From positions 64,001 to 128,000 of IMG/VR virus record IMGVR_UViG_3300032304_002285: a DNA stretch of 64,000 bases, one strand, 5' to 3'. Position 1 is the stretch's first letter. Each line of letters starts with the position of its first letter. The notes below the pieces were generated by a model. The model was given only the letters and a program-made list of their open reading frames with translations. It made no database searches and was not told where the DNA came from. This stretch comes from a virus. This document shows positions 2,444-64,000 of this stretch, in pieces. The position numbers and the translations under genes were made by a program.

Positions 2444-2950
2444 ATGAACAAGGTAAAAATAGCTCAAGAGTTGATTAAGTTGGCCAAGGAATTGGTTGGT
2501 AATTCTTCTAGGACCAAGAAAGCTTACGGTAAAAAGCCGAAGAGTTGGCGTGGAGTTCAAGGCGAATTGAGTTTTGAAGTTGGAGATATGGAGCATCATA
2601 GGGATTCGGGGGTTAGGTCTGCTTATAAGGAAATTGTAAAGTTATTGCCTGAGGGTTCTGAGCCAGGAGATTGGGATATTTTTATTGAATTTGAGAGTAG
2701 TGGTTCTTATTGTCCTGGGCGGTTATCTGGTCCTCCTGAGGATTGTTATCCTGAGGAATCAGAGGATGCGAGAGAGGCAACAAGCATGGAGCTTAGATGG
2801 GCTGGTGATGGGGAAAAGATAAAGAATATTGAGATAAGGCATGGTGCTTCATTTGAAAAAATAGAAGAAGGGTTGTCTGTTCTTATAGAAGGCGTCGAGT
2901 TGAATCATGAGCAAGGATATGATGGTCCTGAGCCAGATGATTGGGATTAA
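2444..2950 (+). CDS. Acidic hypothetical protein with shared N-terminal leader (KIAQELIKLAKELVG)
   Basis: 168-aa ORF with AAGGAG RBS. The leader recurs in other ORFs of this window. Confidence 0.75.
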   Translation: MNKVKIAQELIKLAKELVGNSSRTKKAYGKKPKSWRGVQGELSFEVGDMEHHRDSGVRSAYKEIVKLLPEGSEPGDWDIFIEFESSGSYCPGRLSGPPEDCYPEESEDAREATSMELRWAGDGEKIKNIEIRHGASFEKIEEGLSVLIEGVELNHEQGYDGPEPDDWD

Positions 2951-3011
2951 GTTGTTTAATATTTTTTTGATATTATTCTTTTTGGTATAAAACTTAAAAG
3001 GAGTTTTCGTC

Positions 3012-3263
3012 ATGGATGAGAAAACTATGGTAGCTAAAGAGTTGGTCAAGGTTGCGAGTCTTTTGGTTGCTGAGGAGGGTGAAGCCCCGGAAGCTGAAGA
3101 TGAAGCCTTTGTTCAGAAGTTACGTGACATTCGTACTGGTCTTTTGAGCATTAACAAGAAAAAGAATACACGGTTGAGTGACTACGGGATTGGAGTCATT
3201 CGACCAACGACAAAAGTTCATGAGTTGGTTGATGTCCTTCTCAAGGTTGTAGCTACAAAATAA
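3012..3263 (+). CDS. Hypothetical protein with shared N-terminal leader (MVAKELVKVASLLVA)
   Basis: 83-aa ORF with AAGGAG RBS and the leader motif. Confidence 0.75.
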   Translation: MDEKTMVAKELVKVASLLVAEEGEAPEAEDEAFVQKLRDIRTGLLSINKKKNTRLSDYGIGVIRPTTKVHELVDVLLKVVATK

Positions 3264-3290
3264 GGTAGAGTACAACAAAGAGGTTTGAGA

Positions 3291-3330
3291 GGGACTTAGA
3301 AGGAAAAATCCTCTAAGTCCCTTTTCTTTT
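3291..3330 (+). terminator. Intrinsic terminator
   Basis: GGGACTTAGA/TCTAAGTCCC stem followed by TTTTCTTTT. Confidence 0.75.
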
Positions 3331-3391
3331 TGGTTTGATGGTGGAAATTACAGGGAGGCGAGTATAATAGAATCACAAGGAGAGGTAGTAA

Positions 3392-3715
3392 ATGGTAAAG
3401 AGCAAATCTCAGAAGCAAGTAGAGAGACGTAAGAAGATTGAGCATAACCGAAATGTTATGCAGAATCAGGGAAAGCCTCGTTATCTTCTGTATATCAAGG
3501 TTGACGGTGGTTGGAAAGCTGTGATGAGGTTTAAGACTATTACGGATGTAGATAAGCATTGTGAAAGTATGGAAGATATTCGGAAGAGAAATGCTTCTGA
3601 GTTGGTTGAGGCGAATATTGTTGAGGTGAAGACGGGTAAGGTAATTAGGCATGTTGCGCCTCATAAGGTTAGTGATCCGGCTATGTTGAGTGGATCGTTG
3701 GTGGCGAAGGTTTGA
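3392..3715 (+). CDS. Basic hypothetical protein
   Basis: 107-aa ORF with AGGAGAGG RBS. GGCGAGTATAAT (-10-like) lies upstream. Confidence 0.7.
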   Translation: MVKSKSQKQVERRKKIEHNRNVMQNQGKPRYLLYIKVDGGWKAVMRFKTITDVDKHCESMEDIRKRNASELVEANIVEVKTGKVIRHVAPHKVSDPAMLSGSLVAKV

Positions 3716-54931: not shown

Positions 54932-56026
54932 GTGGAACTTGGAATTAAAGAACAGCTTCGGTATCGAGATATTTCCTGGTTAATGTCAGGGGTAGATATC
55001 GAAGCTGTTATGGGAAAGCTAGGGACTAAGATTCATGGATGGTCAGGGGATCGTGTCATAGGATTTTGCCCTGACCATCATCTTTTCATTAATAGGAGAC
55101 CGTCCCACCCTAGATGGATGTTAAGCATTAAGACTGGAGAGACTTTTTGTTTAACGGAAGGCAGGGGAAGCAATCTTCTTTGGACAATTTGCCGTCTCTT
55201 TGATTGTTCTCCTAAAGATGCGATTAGCATTATAACGGGGGAAGAGTCTGGGTCTTTGACTGAACAGAGGATTCAGTTGAATTCCATTCGGGGTAGATTG
55301 CGGAGGATGCGTGAGGTTGAAGAAGTGGTTGCTCCTAAGATCGTTCAGGGGTTGGACGATATTGGTAAGGATTTGGTAGAAAAGCCAATTTCCCAGAGGT
55401 GCTACGATTTTTTCATTAAGCCTCCCAATAAGCCTCATCCAACTAACATAAAAAAAGAGACGGTTGATCGGTATAGTATCTTTGAAAGAACGTGGGGGTA
55501 CTATTCGGATAGGGCTATTATTCCTTTTTACATGAGGAAGGAGCTTAAGGGTTTTGCTGCTATAGATCTTCTTGGGGAAGACGAGTGGAAGAAGAAGCAT
55601 CCTTTGTCCGATAATTACAGGAAGACTCTTACAGCTATAAACTTTCAGGTGGCAGAATATCTATTTGGCTTTGATGATTGTCAGAAGGGTGCAGACTGGC
55701 TAATCGTCACAGAAGGTCCCAGAGAAGTCATGAAGCTTTGGCAGGAGGGGTTTCCTAATGCTGTTGCTACTTTGGGGATAAACATTGCCCCAGGCCAGCA
55801 TAGGCTTTTTGCCGAGTTGATGCCCAAAAACATTGTTCTGATGTATGATGGGGATGCACGAGGTCTGGCTGCAATGGATAAGATCGGAGAGAGTTTTGTA
55901 AGAATTTTTGGAAAAAAACACGTTCATAAGTGCCTCTGCCCCAATGGTTATGATCCTAAGAACTTATCAGCCAATGAGTTAATTTCCCTATTTAATGGGT
56001 TGAAAGATAAGGGTTTTGGAGTATAA
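54932..56026 (+). CDS. DNA primase (zinc-binding + TOPRIM)
   Basis: CPDH...C zinc-binding region, VTEGPRE, MYDGDARG. Confidence 0.85.
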   Translation: MELGIKEQLRYRDISWLMSGVDIEAVMGKLGTKIHGWSGDRVIGFCPDHHLFINRRPSHPRWMLSIKTGETFCLTEGRGSNLLWTICRLFDCSPKDAISIITGEESGSLTEQRIQLNSIRGRLRRMREVEEVVAPKIVQGLDDIGKDLVEKPISQRCYDFFIKPPNKPHPTNIKKETVDRYSIFERTWGYYSDRAIIPFYMRKELKGFAAIDLLGEDEWKKKHPLSDNYRKTLTAINFQVAEYLFGFDDCQKGADWLIVTEGPREVMKLWQEGFPNAVATLGINIAPGQHRLFAELMPKNIVLMYDGDARGLAAMDKIGESFVRIFGKKHVHKCLCPNGYDPKNLSANELISLFNGLKDKGFGV

Positions 56027-56090: not shown

Positions 56091-56858
56091 GTGGGTATGT
56101 CAGACAATATTGCTCGTTTCCCTGTTTCTCTCCTTGATTTGGTTAGTTATTTTAATGGGACCAATCGGTGTAAAGACCCGAATTGTCGTTGCCATTTAGC
56201 TATGGCTAATCACTCTCACCTTGTCGAATCTTCCCCCATTGTCCGGGTCCCTGTCACTCAGAAGCATGCTGTTGCCATTCTTTCTGGCAAGTTTGTTTGT
56301 GAGGACAAAAACTGCAAGTGTCACAAAAGTAGTGCTTATATTGGCGATGCTTTCTATGAATCAATAAATAAATTGGTTTGGAAGTTGGCTAATAAATATG
56401 CAATCACTTGCAAATTAGATGACGTGAAGGACTTGGGAGGTATTTGTTTTAATCGAATCGTCAAGATGCTTCACAAGTATGATCCAAAGTACGAGTTCTC
56501 TACTTGGGTTTGGACGGTTTGTGAAAACATCCTTCGCCATCAGTGCGAGAAGACTAAGAGGTATATTGACGTTTTTCAGCCGGTTGACGATGATACTAAT
56601 TTAATTGGCAAGAAAGAAGGTGATTCTTTTCTTTTTGCTGAAATGGTATCAGCCATTGATGACTTGAAAGAAGAGTTCCCGGCTTGGGAGGGCTTCTTGA
56701 CTGCTTTATTTGGTAATACAAAGGAGGCTGGGTATTGCATGCCCGATGCTGTTTGTATTGCCAAGTCTGCTCGTGTTGCTGGAAGATCTTACAATGAGGT
56801 TCACCTCTTTATGAAAGAGGTTGTGAGACCTTTTTTTTCTGAGAGATTCGGGTTGTGA
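56091..56858 (+). CDS. Sigma-70-family (region 2) phage sigma factor with N-terminal Cys/His repeats
   Basis: LVWKLANKY...DL...IVKMLHKYDPKYEFSTWVWTVCENILRH. Confidence 0.7.
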   Translation: MGMSDNIARFPVSLLDLVSYFNGTNRCKDPNCRCHLAMANHSHLVESSPIVRVPVTQKHAVAILSGKFVCEDKNCKCHKSSAYIGDAFYESINKLVWKLANKYAITCKLDDVKDLGGICFNRIVKMLHKYDPKYEFSTWVWTVCENILRHQCEKTKRYIDVFQPVDDDTNLIGKKEGDSFLFAEMVSAIDDLKEEFPAWEGFLTALFGNTKEAGYCMPDAVCIAKSARVAGRSYNEVHLFMKEVVRPFFSERFGL

Positions 56859-56889: not shown

Positions 56890-57648
56890 ATGGGAACGGA
56901 AGAGGCTGAGAAGAGTGTTGTTGCTGGAGCAAAGGTTCATCATTCGGCTACTTGCTGGGGACATTTTGATAAGAAAGCCAAGGAATGCTCACAGTGCTTG
57001 GTTTTCCAAGCGTGTCTGGAGGCTACTGTCAATATTAACACGCTACAGGCTTCTCCTGCTAAGGCAAAGCCGGTAGCTACAGTTACTCCTGCTCCTGTGG
57101 TTATTGCTACTCCTGTGGCTCCTGTTGTTGCTTCTGGGTGTGTTGCGTCCTCTTCTCCTGTCCATAAGAAAGTGGTTAAGCCAGAAATTTTGGCGACTCC
57201 TGTTAGGACGGCTGATGTTGAGGTTGTGAAAAAACAGGAAGAGGATGTTCCTGTTGAAGAAATTAAGATTGAGGTAAAAAAGGAAGAGCCAAAGGTTCTT
57301 GCGATTGTCCCGGAAGTTGCTCCTGTGTTGGTTGTGGAGCCTCAGAAGGATGATTTGGATCAGCTTCCTATCATTAACATGTTGAAGGAAAAGCTTGGAG
57401 TAGAGCCGAATGTTAAGGGTGGGTTTGGTTCTGATGTCTATCTCTTCATTTATGGAGAGGATAAGGGTTTGCAGGTTGTCCTTCAAAAGGCATCTGGTGA
57501 TGCTGTTTTCATGAATAAGGACGGGGTTAAGAAGGAGTTTTCTTATTTTAAGACAGTGAAGGTAAAGGGAGGGAAGCCAACGAAAGAAAGGCTTTCGTAT
57601 CAAGAGAAGACCAAGAAGATTCAAGAAATCTTTGACGCTGTTCTCTAA
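56890..57648 (+). CDS. Protein with an N-terminal four-Cys motif and a Pro/Ala/Val-rich linker
   Basis: CWGHFDKKAKECSQCLVFQAC, followed by a low-complexity linker. Confidence 0.7.
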   Translation: MGTEEAEKSVVAGAKVHHSATCWGHFDKKAKECSQCLVFQACLEATVNINTLQASPAKAKPVATVTPAPVVIATPVAPVVASGCVASSSPVHKKVVKPEILATPVRTADVEVVKKQEEDVPVEEIKIEVKKEEPKVLAIVPEVAPVLVVEPQKDDLDQLPIINMLKEKLGVEPNVKGGFGSDVYLFIYGEDKGLQVVLQKASGDAVFMNKDGVKKEFSYFKTVKVKGGKPTKERLSYQEKTKKIQEIFDAVL

Positions 57649-57649
57649 T

Positions 57650-58549
57650 ATGTATACGATTGACTTTCCTTATTATCAGCCTCCTTTTCCGGAATATAAT
57701 CCGGTCCAAAGTGCTGTAATTCCGTTCATTGATAAAGATATGAACGTGGTTGCAGCATTTGGAACAGCAACAGGGAAGACAGTCTTAGCCGAATGTGCTT
57801 TTGCTTATCACTTAAGTCAAAATGATTCGGCTAGGGTTGTCTTTGTCTGTCCTTTCCGTAGCCTTAGTGAGGAAAAGTTTAAGGCTTGGAAAGCGAACGA
57901 TCAATTGTCTAAGTACTCTGTGGTTATTAGCACTAGTGACCATGGAACTACTCCTGAGGAATTCATACAGGGGAGATTGTCGATTGTAACCTCAGAGTCT
58001 TTTGATTCAAAGGTTCGGGGAAGTCGGTACCGGGATTGGGTCAATTCAATTACTTGTGTTGTAGTTGATGAGGCTCATATCATGGGGGAAAGAAATGGTT
58101 CGATAGAGACATCATTGATGAGAATAACCAAGATAAATCCTCAAGCGAGGATTATTCTTCTTTCTGCTACGCTGGGTAATGCTATAGATTTGGCGAAGTG
58201 GTTGAAGAAGCTGAATGGTAAAACAACGAAATGTTTTACTAGTAGTTGGAGACCAACAGCTATTACTACTGAAATTCATGTGGTAGAGGATGGATATCAG
58301 GATAAGATAGATAAGGCTGTTGAGCTTGCTTCTAATAATGAAGGGAAGATCATTATTTTTGTTCATTCAAAGGTTCTTGGTGCTGATATATGCAAGAGGT
58401 TGAAATCTTCCGGTTTTAGATCTGCTTTCCATAATGCTTCTTTGTCATTTGCTTTAAGAAACAAAATAGAAAAAGCTTTTTCTGATCCAAGATCTGGATT
58501 GGATATTTTGGTCTCAACAAGCACTTTGGGTGCGGGTGTAAATTTATAA
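57650..58549 (+). CDS. Ski2/Hel308-like SF2 helicase, N-terminal half
   Basis: AFGTATGKT, VVVDEAH, LSAT, IIFVHSK, AFHNASL. Ends at LVSTSTLGAGVNL* within motif V. Confidence 0.85.
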   Translation: MYTIDFPYYQPPFPEYNPVQSAVIPFIDKDMNVVAAFGTATGKTVLAECAFAYHLSQNDSARVVFVCPFRSLSEEKFKAWKANDQLSKYSVVISTSDHGTTPEEFIQGRLSIVTSESFDSKVRGSRYRDWVNSITCVVVDEAHIMGERNGSIETSLMRITKINPQARIILLSATLGNAIDLAKWLKKLNGKTTKCFTSSWRPTAITTEIHVVEDGYQDKIDKAVELASNNEGKIIIFVHSKVLGADICKRLKSSGFRSAFHNASLSFALRNKIEKAFSDPRSGLDILVSTSTLGAGVNL

Positions 58550-58560
58550 TATGGTGTTTT

Positions 58561-59115
58561 ATGTCTTTGCAGGAAATTAAAGAAAATTGTTTGTCTTGTA
58601 AAGCTTGCCCTTTAGGTGGCAGGGGAGTTGTTTTTTCTAATATGAATGAACAAGCTTCTATCATGGTTATTGGTCAGAGTCCGGGAAAGGACGAGGTAAG
58701 GGAGGGAGAGCCTTTCGTTGGGGTTTCTGGTAAGAATTTTGATGAAGCAATAAAAGAACATGTTGGGCTAAACCGTTCATTCTTTTATTTTTCAAATGTA
58801 ATTCGGTGTTTGGTTCCGGAAAAGTATTTACTTACAGAGCAGAATTTTTCAGCTTGTCGAGTTCATCTTGATAGAGAGATAAAGGAAGTCAATCCAGTTT
58901 TGATTGTTACTTTGGGATCATCAGCTTTCGAGTCATTAACAGGGATGCATGGCTTGATGAAGCATCATGGGAAGTTTATTATTTCTTCCCGATATATGAT
59001 TCCGGTTCTTCCTTTGTTGCATCCTTCTCCTTTGGTGATGAACAATGTGGAGACTAGAGATCTTTTTATTAAAGACTTAAAGAAGATTCGGGAGTTTATT
59101 TCACAAAATGGCTGA
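58561..59115 (+). CDS. udg: Uracil-DNA glycosylase, family 4 (Fe-S type)
   Basis: CLSCKACPL...IMVIGQSPGKDE..EGEPFVG.SG...NVIRC...C...LLHPS. Confidence 0.9.
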   Translation: MSLQEIKENCLSCKACPLGGRGVVFSNMNEQASIMVIGQSPGKDEVREGEPFVGVSGKNFDEAIKEHVGLNRSFFYFSNVIRCLVPEKYLLTEQNFSACRVHLDREIKEVNPVLIVTLGSSAFESLTGMHGLMKHHGKFIISSRYMIPVLPLLHPSPLVMNNVETRDLFIKDLKKIREFISQNG

Positions 59116-60094
59116 TAGAGTAATTATTGTTGGCGCAAGTCGGCGTGGTGAGAGAATTCCCATTGGAAGTTTACGCCAAATGTGCGGACGAGCGGGAAGA
59201 GGGCATGAGTTAGGGGAGTGCCATGCTGATTTAATTGTGGCTGAAAGCGATGCTGATTATGTAGAGAATGGATTAAATCTTGCAAGTGAGTTGAGCATAT
59301 CTTCTGTCTTGAGTAAAAAGAATCTTTTGGCTTTTCATATTCTTCCTGAGATTGCATCAGAAGAAGTTTTGGATGTAGTTAGTGCTGAGTTATGGCATGA
59401 AAGAAGTTTTCATTCTTATCTTGGATTTGAGGTTAAGTGGGAAAAGATTTTTGAGTTTTTGTCTGAGCATGGTTGTGTAATTTGGGATGGTAATTTCGTA
59501 AAGATTACTCCTCTGGGGAGTATTACTGCTTCTTATTATTTCCATTCTTCAGATGTTTGTGATTGGAAGAATAATTTCTCTTTCATTTTTGAGCTTGGCT
59601 TAGAGAATGATGATCTTGCCTTGGCTTGGGCTTTGGGTAATGTAAGGAACAATCGTCGTTCTGGTGATTGTAGCAAGTTGGGTGAGATAATAGAGGATTG
59701 TCGCAACCGTCTTCCTGTTCCCTTGGAGATAGATGATGGTTGTGTATTGACTGTTCTTTTATGGTGGCATGTTTTTGGTGGTCCTCCGGTTGGCAAGTTA
59801 AAGAATCAATCAATCGAGTTAAAGAGTGACTTTGGAAGAATTTACAAGGTTCTTTCTGCTATTGATTCTGATGTATCTAATTGGGGAATGCAGAGTTTTT
59901 TTGATGATCTTTTGCTTAGGTCTAAAAAAGCAATTTCTTCGGAGCTTGTCAAACTTATCAAAATCGGCGGTATAACAAAGGGACAGGCAATAGCCCTAAA
60001 GGATAGGGGTATTAGCAATCGTAAGGAATTATTGGAGTCTAAAGAGCATATGGACCTTACAGATGTTCTAGGAGAGGGATATGACTTTTCCTGA
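59108..60094 (+). CDS. Ski2/Hel308-like SF2 helicase, C-terminal half
   Basis: MADRVIIVG...LRQMCGRAGR (motif VI). Winged-helix ITPLGSITASYY. C-terminal HhH LIKIGGITKGQA..L. Confidence 0.85.
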   Translation: MADRVIIVGASRRGERIPIGSLRQMCGRAGRGHELGECHADLIVAESDADYVENGLNLASELSISSVLSKKNLLAFHILPEIASEEVLDVVSAELWHERSFHSYLGFEVKWEKIFEFLSEHGCVIWDGNFVKITPLGSITASYYFHSSDVCDWKNNFSFIFELGLENDDLALAWALGNVRNNRRSGDCSKLGEIIEDCRNRLPVPLEIDDGCVLTVLLWWHVFGGPPVGKLKNQSIELKSDFGRIYKVLSAIDSDVSNWGMQSFFDDLLLRSKKAISSELVKLIKIGGITKGQAIALKDRGISNRKELLESKEHMDLTDVLGEGYDFS

Positions 60095-60539
60095 AAGGGC
60101 TGTTTTGACTTGTGCATCCCGGCTTAAATCCGGAAAGGTTTACGAAAGTGATATTCGTAATATCTTGAAGTGCATAAAAGTTGATGTTTCCCCGATAGAG
60201 CCTTTTTTAAATCATGTAGATTCCCTTGTACGGATGGCTGCAATTAGGATTATAGGGGCAAAGGGGAATGTTAGTTTGTTGTTTAATGTGTTGAGAGACG
60301 AGCAAGATAAATCAATTGTATTTGAGGCTATGAGGCATCTAGGGAAGCGAGGGGGAAATCTTGAAGATCTAGTTGGGATTTTAGAATCAAATGATTCTAT
60401 GATGAAGCAAGAAGCTATCGCCATGTTTAGACGTTCGGGAAATGTTGATTGTTTGTTCCCGTTATTATTTGATCAGGATCAAAATATAGTTAGTCAAGTC
60501 AAGGAGTATTTTGATGAGCGAGAAAGAAAATGTGTTTAG
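60081..60539 (+). CDS. HEAT-repeat protein
   Basis: FLNHVDSLVRMAAIRIIG...ILESNDSMMKQEAI...LLFDQDQNIVSQV. Confidence 0.7.
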   Translation: MTFPERAVLTCASRLKSGKVYESDIRNILKCIKVDVSPIEPFLNHVDSLVRMAAIRIIGAKGNVSLLFNVLRDEQDKSIVFEAMRHLGKRGGNLEDLVGILESNDSMMKQEAIAMFRRSGNVDCLFPLLFDQDQNIVSQVKEYFDERERKCV

Positions 60540-63068: not shown

Positions 63069-63095
63069 GGGGATGGATTGTCCATCCCCTTTTTT
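63069..63095 (+). terminator. Intrinsic terminator
   Basis: GGGGATGGA/TCCATCCCC followed by T6, right after the -1-frame stop. Confidence 0.75.
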
Positions 63096-63108
63096 AGGAG
63101 AGTGGTTT

Positions 63109-64000
63109 ATGGCTTCAAATATTCAGATGACTCCTGATCGGCAAAAGCGGTTTGAACGGTTGCGGAAGATTTGTGATACGATTAAGAAGGCTGAAAAAGC
63201 CCAGGATATTATTACCTTTTTGGGTTCTGGTGATACTATTCCTATTGCTCGTTTTTCTTCTGGTTGTCCCGAATTGGATTCTGCATTGGGAGGAGGTTGG
63301 CCAAAGGGGAGGTTTATTGAACTTTTTGGGCCTGAATCTGGCGGTAAATCCACTACCTGCTTGCATGCTATCGCTGAGTTCCAAAAAGATGCTCCGGATG
63401 AAGATGTTGCTTTGGTTGACACTGAGTTTTCATTTGATGAAGAGTATGCTAGGAATTTGGGTGTAGATACTGATTTGCTTCTTGTGAATCAGCCTGAAAG
63501 TGGTGAACAGGCTCTTAAGGTTGTTCGTCATTTGATTCAGCTTGGGGTTGGTCTTATCATTGTCGATTCGGTTGCTGCTTTGACTCCTCAGGCTGAGCTT
63601 GATGGTGACATTGGCGATCAACATGTTGGGCAACAAGCTCGCTTGATGTCTCAAACAATGCGAATTCTTTGCGCTGAGGCTGGTAAGCGGGGTACTACTA
63701 TCTTTTGGACCAATCAGATGCGTGAAAAGATTGGTGTCATGTATGGGGATAAAACAACAACTCCCGGTGGTAGAGCCTTGCGCCATTACGCTTCTATTCG
63801 GGTGAATATCTCTTCTATTTCAAAAGAGAAGGATGGAGAGATTATTGTTGGGAGCAAGGTTCAGGCAGATGTAAAGAAGAACAAGACTGCTGCTCCTTTC
63901 AAGAAGGCTATCTTCTACATTTCCTTTGGAACAGGAATTGATCGGGTTGCTGCTATTTGCGATAAGGCAATTGCGATTAAGGTTGTTACAAAGAGAGGGG
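63109..64000 (+). CDS. recA: RecA recombinase, 3'-partial (absent from the ORF track)
   Basis: Translated by hand: SSGCPELDSALGGGWPKGRFIELFGPESGGKST...LIIVDSVAAL...QARLMSQ...NQMREKIGVMYG...TTPGGRAL...VKKNKTAAPFK. Confidence 0.97.
   Translation, partial: MASNIQMTPDRQKRFERLRKICDTIKKAEKAQDIITFLGSGDTIPIARFSSGCPELDSALGGGWPKGRFIELFGPESGGKSTTCLHAIAEFQKDAPDEDVALVDTEFSFDEEYARNLGVDTDLLLVNQPESGEQALKVVRHLIQLGVGLIIVDSVAALTPQAELDGDIGDQHVGQQARLMSQTMRILCAEAGKRGTTIFWTNQMREKIGVMYGDKTTTPGGRALRHYASIRVNISSISKEKDGEIIVGSKVQADVKKNKTAAPFKKAIFYISFGTGIDRVAAICDKAIAIKVVTKRG

Follow-up and report, generated by a model that had tools for sequence, protein, structure and literature searches.

A predicted Hel308-like helicase encoded in two pieces, split within motif V around a family-4 uracil-DNA glycosylase gene, in a jumbo phage and its relatives

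The helicase halves and the glycosylase gene

The stretch of DNA analyzed here, referred to as the window, spans bases 64001-128000 (64,000 nucleotides) of the 180,758-bp IMG/VR record IMGVR_UViG_3300032304_002285, a fragment of a jumbo phage with a CheckV completeness of 51%. On its + strand the two halves of a predicted helicase are encoded by separate ORFs (open reading frames), and a gene for a uracil-DNA glycosylase (UDG) lies between them. The amino-terminal half (N-half; 57650..58549, 299 aa) runs from an ATG at 57650 to a TAA at 58547-58549 and ends with ...LVSTSTLGAGVNL directly before the stop codon. An alternative TTG start is present upstream, at 57632; the ATG is favored because the N-halves of relatives begin with M.T..YPYY. 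A spacer of 11 nt (58550..58560) separates the N-half stop from the start of the UDG ORF (58561..59115, 184 aa), and the UDG stop overlaps the ATG of the carboxy-terminal half (C-half; 59108..60094, 328 aa), which begins MADRVIIVG. The overlap, ATGGCTGA (59108..59115), has a geometry typical of translational coupling, and stop/start overlaps of the same or a similar kind (ATGA, TAATG) are found in relatives. The distance between the two halves is 558 bp and is occupied by the UDG gene. An initial annotation, made from the sequence alone, had given these ORF ends, the C-half start, the gap length and the overlap, and all of its coordinates were found again. It had also pointed to a TATAAT hexamer (58545-58550), which does overlap the N-half stop; the hexamer was rejected as a recognizable promoter because no -35 partner was found for it and because promoter-like sites in the region are not enriched (9 found against 8.0 expected).

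By their domains and motifs, the two flanking ORFs together are a predicted Hel308/Ski2-like superfamily II (SF2) helicase. In Pfam, the N-half matches DEAD and Helicase_C, the latter broken off at profile position 81 of 110, and the C-half has no match. In PHROGs, both halves fall in phrog_6819 (645 positions), the N-half covering positions 21-302 and the C-half positions 330-485. In the PDB, the N-half is matched by Brr2 with E 5e-40 and by archaeal Hel308 with E 5e-25, and a profile of C-halves matches Hel308 (2p6r) from residue 340 on (E 1e-28) as well as Hel308 residues 615-668, which form the C-terminal helix-hairpin-helix (HhH) domain; the pattern GI.KG.A..L...GI is conserved in this region of the C-half. 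The N-half contains RecA1 and the first part (about 60%) of RecA2, with motifs Q, I (GTATGKT), II (DEAH), III (SAT), IV and the first half of V (TSTLGAGVNL). The C-half contains the second half of motif V (the M-ADRVIIVG strand), motif VI (QMCGRAGR), a winged helix, a ratchet and the HhH domain. The SF2 motifs Q, I, Ia, II (DExH), III, IV, V and VI are thus all present, but shared out over two polypeptides.

An AlphaFold (AF2) model of the C-half has a predicted local distance difference test score (pLDDT) of 90.7. Its top Foldseek matches, aligned along the entire model over some 345 columns, are Hel308, Hjm, the Pol-theta helicase and Brr2 (TM-scores, TMq, of 0.55-0.66; E down to 1e-10), with the winged helix and the Sec63-like ratchet recovered. 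Along the model, a first strand (residues 4-8) is followed by a short hairpin, then by the motif VI helix and a further strand; the two short strands at residues 11-12 and 15-16, which precede the motif VI helix, are a candidate beta-hairpin. The Ski2/Hel308-like identity first proposed for the two ORFs was upheld. The same motifs and domain order (RecA1, RecA2, winged helix, ratchet, HhH; probably also the beta-hairpin in RecA2) are seen in archaeal Hel308/Hjm and the Pol-theta helicase domain (2p6r, 9b15, 2zj2, 2va8, 5a9f), and the Brr2/ASCC3 cassettes are more distant kin. Unlike Hel308, the predicted phage enzyme comes as two separate polypeptides, the break falling between the positions that correspond to Hel308 residues ~339 and 340; it also differs in being viral and is 19-30% identical to these proteins.

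The middle ORF matches the Pfam UDG family (PF03167, E 4.7e-26, 92 bits). Its best solved match is 4zbx from Sulfolobus tokodaii (E 1e-26), followed by 1vk2 (Thermotoga TM0511)/1l9g and 1ui0 (Thermus UDGA). Since these closest solved relatives are family-4 enzymes, the gap ORF is, by sequence, a family-4 (Fe-S) UDG, as had been proposed, and it shares with them the predicted fold, the length and four cysteines. These residues (Cys13, Cys16, Cys83 and Cys99) align with cysteines of 4zbx, are invariant in 16 homologues and are the predicted 4Fe-4S ligands. Conserved as well are the Asn in ..SNV.RC.. and motif B's His (HPSP), and the phage clade as a whole keeps C-x2-C-x2-C, GQNPG, the Asn and Cys of ..N..RC.., and HPSP. 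Motif A sets the clade apart: it reads GQSPG in the window and GQ(N/S)PG throughout the clade (consensus GQNPG), in contrast to GEAPG in 4zbx. The UDG of the window is the only one in the 181-kb record. A homologue of 562 aa (P0185, from ENA), 48% identical to the gap UDG over 75% of the query, carries a LAGLIDADG_2 domain (PF03161), and the UDG itself is apparently open to invasion by an intein or homing element.

The cut site

The precision of the cut is seen by comparison with the fused relatives L001 and P0034. A fused relative of 675 aa, encoded in the 595-kb uncultured phage LR756511, reads ...TSTLAWGLNLPARRVVILG... at the corresponding position, and ...ATSTLAWGLNLPARRVVILG... of the fused protein is aligned with STSTLGAGVNL, stop, MADRVIIVG of the window. 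At the junction itself, GLNLPARRVV of the fused form corresponds to GVNL plus MADRVI of the split form; the initiator Met stands where the fused form has the Pro, with no residue absent, in agreement with the initial claim that no residues were lost at the split in motif V. The natural fused orthologue P0034 was modelled with AlphaFold (pLDDT 84); there, the cut site is part of a loop of pLDDT <60, which separates a short helix (302-305) from a RecA2 strand (314-317). This strand is the one with which the C-half model begins.

Both halves conserve their catalytic residues, as the initial annotation had stated for the window. GK(T), DExH, SAT and TSTL..GVN are invariant in 19 N-halves, and in 30 C-halves R12 and motif VI's Q..GR..R show no or almost no variation. 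The cut site, the halves and the catalytic motifs are retained across relatives that are only 27-60% identical. The check suggested at the outset, the ratio of nonsynonymous to synonymous substitution rates (dN/dS) on both halves, gave values indicative of purifying selection. Most pairs are saturated at synonymous sites; in the one clearly unsaturated pair (L008 and L051, dS ~1) the ratio is 0.11 for the N-half, 0.16 for the UDG and 0.14 for the C-half, and it is 0.05-0.16 in the few other usable pairs. The pairwise distances of the three proteins are also correlated (N-half with C-half, r 0.84; N-half with UDG, 0.68; UDG with C-half, 0.74), and in Mantel tests none of 2000 permutations exceeded any of these values. 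By these correlations, the UDG has travelled with the helicase and has not hopped.

Distribution of the split among relatives

A HMMER scan with the C-half over 1.84 billion cluster representatives gave 431 matches. Of the 60 top-scoring ones, almost all are free-standing proteins, about 330 aa long, whose residue 1 is aligned to residue 1 of the query; they are 27-43% identical to it and mostly start with MADRVI. Fused forms (600-1500 aa) rank below the stand-alone C-halves in score. When the 130 best-scoring cluster representatives were classified, 67 were stand-alone C-halves starting at the cut site, and about 60 protein clusters (at the 50% identity level) of such C-halves begin at the same residue. 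In a tree of the C-half region with 122 representatives, a branch with 97% support divides 61 split and 2 fused forms from a mainly fused group, which comprises 53 fused and 6 apparently split forms (2 fragment-like, 4 basal). The existing names of these proteins in their sources are only 'hypothetical protein' or 'replicative superfamily II helicase'.

A total of 46 distinct related loci were collected from IMG/VR, JGI metagenomes and other assemblies, the locus scan being made with an alignment of seq­uences numbering seven. Both halves are present in 29 loci, and in every one of these the cut is at the same residue: the N-halves end in TSTL(G/S)AGVN(I/L/V/A/M) plus 0-4 residues, and the C-halves start with (M/V/L)A(D/S)xV(I/V)(I/V)VG. 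An identical cut site in 29 of 29 loci places the split far beyond chance. A UDG homologue (34-54% identical) lies between the halves in 34 of the 36 informative loci, so that both the split and the UDG insertion recur in related phages, the recurrence that the initial annotation had proposed to look for. It had named unsplit relatives as a finding that would count against it; relatives without the split do exist, but only as distant relatives and as two apparently re-fused lineages nested among the split ones. A DNA-level search of the phage collection with the locus gave no match, and the only find of a single-protein pattern scan of IMG/VR (L003) was rejected as an unrelated defence-type helicase.

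A second split site, at motif VI, was suggested by five proteins starting with MAGRAGR (P0019, P0027, P0040, P0064 and P0142) and was rejected as an artefact of gene calling. Such calls begin at the Met of motif VI (QMAGRAGR) and drop the first 24 residues; in L058, the true start, MADRVVIVG, is in frame upstream of the call. The closest long relative of the window is L065, whose C-half is 58% identical and whose N-half runs about 20 codons past ...GVNL before its stop. In the related contigs L061 (2796-3842) and L062 (P0094), a divergent C-half beginning MADRVIVAG has a SpoVR-family gene and a PrkA-like fragment upstream of it. An N-half was found neither within 2.8 kb upstream nor elsewhere on the 6.6-kb contig, and the two halves may be unlinked in this lineage.

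The locus is embedded in a conserved gene order. Upstream of the N-half, all on the + strand, are genes for a Toprim primase (54932-56026), a protein resembling sigma-70 region 2 (56091-56858) and, directly before the N-half, a 252-aa protein (56890-57648). Downstream are a HEAT-repeat protein (60081..60539, +), whose start overlaps the end of the C-half, and, beyond it, a RecA homologue (63073-63999), which is open at the window end. The order primase, sigma-like protein, small ORF, helicase, HEAT-repeat protein and, further on, RecA is common to the window and its relatives, and the upstream part of it is matched in L005, L006, L057, L063 and L065.

The gap as a variable cargo slot

The content of the gap varies among the relatives. 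It is empty in three lineages, L005 (2 nt), L049 (51 nt) and L063 (57 nt), and in the window it holds the UDG alone. In many relatives, the UDG is directly followed by a member of a small family (family X, 62-107 aa) that has no Pfam match; examples are L012:900-1172, L017:5685-6005, L023:5724-6008, L022:5051-5347 and L058:320-613, among others. In L007, L042, L024 and L055, the UDG is accompanied by a Trp/Cys-rich protein of 142-161 aa (family Y). Both families are missing from the gap of the window. In L006, the gap contains, alongside the UDG, a homologue of thymidylate synthase (2568-3416) whose match is confined to the middle of the Pfam model (E 1.8e-10, model positions 88-220 out of 266), and this gene could be ThyA or a related pyrimidine hydroxymethylase.

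Endonucleases are also found with the UDG, in L015, L024, L025, L042 and L065/L066, where the nuclease ORF directly follows the N-half and precedes the UDG. These proteins (264-317 aa, 45-72% identical to one another) combine repeated Zn-ribbon modules with a DUF559/REase_MTES_1575/Vsr-like nuclease domain, and a PDB sequence search with a gap endonuclease gave only marginal matches. In L065 (2363-3325 region), the order is N-half, intact Vsr-like endonuclease, UDG and family X. A decayed endonuclease in L065 was considered and rejected: L065 matches L066 at 100% identity over 2800 nt, with an intact ORF, the JGI call being too short in L065 (103 aa) and 269 aa long in L066. The gap of the window, which is UDG only, has no homing endonuclease.

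The helicase genes have themselves been invaded at other sites. The N-half of L042 (2123-4120, Ga0180432_10002697) is 666 aa long and has an insert of about 360 aa exactly at the DEAH box, with intein-type boundaries (DE followed by C-F-T-G-T at one end, V-L-C-H-N followed by C-H-L-M at the other); no Pfam intein match was found in it at E<0.01. In P0055 (764 aa, L059:64-2358) and P0093 (742 aa), whose C-halves start with MADVVIVAG or MSDHVIITG, an insert of about 430 aa lies near motif VI. That of P0055 matches Pfam Intein_splicing and LAGLIDADG_3, and a motif VI intein is also probable in P0093. The inteins in motif II (L042) and motif VI (P0055) mark the helicase as a target of mobile elements.

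Order of events

In an N-half tree rooted on fused outgroups, the split forms are a clade with support of 100/99. Within it, L063, with its empty gap, is sister to a crown group (100/100) in which nearly all members have the UDG. The other empty gaps are placed differently: L049 is nested (100/100) with the endonuclease and UDG loci L024 and L025, and L005 is nested in the crown as well, which suggests that these two lost their cargo secondarily and retained the split. Also nested inside the split crown (100/100) are the fused forms L057 (the 659-aa P0034, with the same synteny) and P0112. The junction of P0112, GVNI-LSSNDR-EHVVIVG, is four residues longer than the canonical NLPARRV, the extra length being that expected from read-through of a short spacer. 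L057 and P0112 are apparently secondary re-fusions of the split gene.

The simplest history is therefore a fused gene, its split, the entry of the UDG on the stem of the crown, and then gains and losses of genes with occasional healing. Alternatively, the UDG arrived with the break and was later lost in L063, a history that costs only one more step. The initial annotation had implied that the UDG made the cut. This has to be qualified: the split occurs with an empty gap in L005, L049 and L063, of which L063 is sister to all UDG-bearing lineages, and other genes, a homing endonuclease among them, occupy the gap in several relatives.

A probable two-subunit helicase with a resident passenger

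We consider it probable that the locus is an ancient, intein-less fractured gene giving rise to a non-covalent, two-subunit Hel308-like helicase, with the UDG as a long-resident, co-expressed passenger. A large clade of uncultured jumbo phages would trace back to an ancestor in which a Hel308-family gene, part of a replication/recombination module, was broken in the motif V loop, and the two cistrons would have been kept from then on. RecA1 and about 60% of RecA2, with the motifs from Q up to half of V, would come from the N subunit; the C subunit would contribute the other strands of RecA2, the candidate beta-hairpin, the arginine finger of motif VI and three further domains (winged helix, ratchet and HhH). 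Because motifs I and II and the arginine finger are on separate chains, neither half is expected to be an ATPase alone, and the two would be an obligate heterodimer whose pieces reassemble non-covalently into one helicase. The intergenic cut may have acted as a permissive cargo slot that the family-4 UDG entered early and in which it was co-inherited with the halves; other cargo (the Vsr-like homing endonuclease, the ThyA homologue and the two small families) would come and go, and the halves would sometimes re-fuse. The short spacer, the ATGGCTGA overlap, the overlaps in relatives and the lack of enrichment of promoter-like sites suggest that N-half, UDG and C-half are translated in a coupled manner from one mRNA, which would match their expression.

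Several considerations weigh against this explanation. Selection was measured on relatives, the best of which are 55-60% identical to the window. The association of the N and C polypeptides and the activity of the rebuilt enzyme are predicted from sequence, transcription as one mRNA from the packing of the genes, and an origin of the break by a homing endonuclease from analogy, the window having no such gene. The order in which the split precedes the UDG hangs on L063 as one sister lineage and on one step of parsimony.

The alternative that survives best, although we regard it as unlikely, was raised in the initial annotation: a three-protein machine for uracil-directed repair or processing, in which the UDG physically belongs to the reassembled helicase or docks on it. 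Its placement inside the gene would then ensure stoichiometric co-assembly. The high occupancy of informative gaps by the UDG, its co-inheritance with the halves, the stop/start overlaps that link it to both of them and the purifying selection acting on it are all consistent with such a machine, as is the thymidylate-synthase homologue in the gap of L006, which also belongs to uracil/thymine metabolism. However, the split helicase is kept without a gap UDG in L005, L049 and L063, and the helicase is fused in two nested lineages, with no UDG within 4-5 kb in L057. The existence of these empty-gap and re-fused lineages indicates that the helicase needs no UDG gene at this site. A search for longer UDG-bearing proteins found only a homologue with a LAGLIDADG-type endonuclease domain and no helicase fused to this UDG, which is weak evidence, and a shared operon position is explained equally well by descent. 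The more specific proposal of a functional cut, as opposed to a tolerated scar, in which the UDG, translated between the halves, would dock on the reassembling RecA2 and couple the assembly or activity of the helicase to the recognition of uracil or abasic sites, is likewise doubtful; if true, it would describe a three-protein, uracil-sensing repair helicase without a described counterpart. Under the same doubtful reading, the split could be a natural regulatory switch that phages are able to re-fuse.

It is very improbable that the halves have acquired independent functions without reassembly, the C-half for example as a DNA-binding winged-helix/HhH protein and the N-half as a partial ATPase module. 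The L061/L062 lineage, with its C-half beside PrkA/SpoVR-like genes, would fit such a separation. In all other loci, however, the halves are adjacent, their distances are the most strongly correlated of the three pairs, and the apparent re-fusions yield helicases of normal length. Moreover, the motif V strand and the motif VI arginine finger of the C-half and motifs I and II of the N-half are all kept invariant, constraints that are understandable only with a single rebuilt ATPase site.

Less probable still is that the halves are joined into one polypeptide by a group I/II intron, by trans-splicing of a split intein, by ribosomal bypass or by recoding of the stop codon. The N-half and the C-half do share one reading frame in the window, 186 codons apart, and inteins are known elsewhere in this helicase family. 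Against this, no intein residues are present at the break, where the N-half stops 0-4 residues past GVN(I/L) and the C-half starts M-A-D-R-V; an Rfam intron search of the locus gave only two sub-threshold chance matches; and, with an 11-nt spacer and overlapping stop/start, an intron would not fit outside the UDG ORF. The 558-bp gap contains at least 17 stop codons, of all three kinds, in the helicase frame, and the gap lengths of relatives (2 to 2238 nt) are not divisible by three. The N-half stop codon is TAA, TAG or TGA depending on the locus, and recoding of the stop therefore offers no explanation; the initiator codon of the C-half, by contrast, is conserved as Met/Val/Leu.

Least probable of all is a decaying pseudogene in which an insertion killed the helicase and left the halves as remnants: an interruption inside a catalytic motif is the usual sign of inactivation, but we reject this reading on the conservation and dN/dS data, both halves being full-length with catalytic residues invariant in lineages down to ~27% identity. 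The view of the initial annotation that this is a natural two-piece helicase and not a pseudogene is thus upheld by the conserved cut, halves and motifs, the low dN/dS values and the lack of an intein, intron or read-through.

Relation to known systems

Broken phage genes are exemplified by the nrdA gene of Aeromonas phage Aeh1, split by mobE, and by the split gp43 polymerase.

Fractured genes of phages, associated with split inteins and with endonucleases of the Vsr-like or GIY-YIG type, were described by Dassa et al. 2009 (NAR; PMC2677866), who also include an intein-less, SbcD-like case. The present locus resembles them in that adjacent, co-oriented phage ORFs encode consecutive parts of one conserved enzyme of DNA metabolism, in that the cut lies inside a conserved motif, and in that the breaks of several relatives contain a free-standing Vsr-like (DUF559) endonuclease of the family first described in that study. 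It differs in several ways. There are no split-intein halves at the break, so only the rarer intein-less variant fits; the break of the window is without an endonuclease, and the near-universal resident is a housekeeping UDG. The host genes listed previously are the gp41 helicase, IMPDH, DnaE, NrdA/J, ligase and terminase and include no SF2 Hel308-type helicase (PMC2677866), whereas here the break is inside motif V of the motor domain of such an enzyme. Finally, unlike the fractured genes of that study, this is an old break, fixed over about 60 clusters at the 50% identity level, with a multi-gene cargo slot and apparent re-fusions.

UDG domains fused to family-A polymerases are reported in phages (PMC13697223); unlike those, the UDG here is a free-standing gene inside a split helicase gene. 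We found no description in the literature of a split Hel308-like helicase with a UDG.

Implications

The locus presents an SF2 helicase that is cut through its motor domain, in motif V, and is nevertheless maintained by selection over deep time. The cut would be a natural, pre-validated split site for helicases of the Hel308, Pol-theta and Brr2 types. Annotation is affected as well: jumbo-phage metagenomes contain dozens of 'hypothetical proteins', about 330 aa long, to which the name of this helicase's C-terminal subunit can now be given.

Fractured genes have so far been recent events tied to endonucleases or inteins; here the fracture is old and shared by a whole clade, and the break has turned into a stable landing pad for useful genes such as the UDG and the ThyA homologue, among others. 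The series of empty gap, UDG, UDG with endonuclease, and re-fused gene within one syntenic locus is a compact natural experiment, which bears on how mobile elements break genes, how broken genes survive and how they heal.

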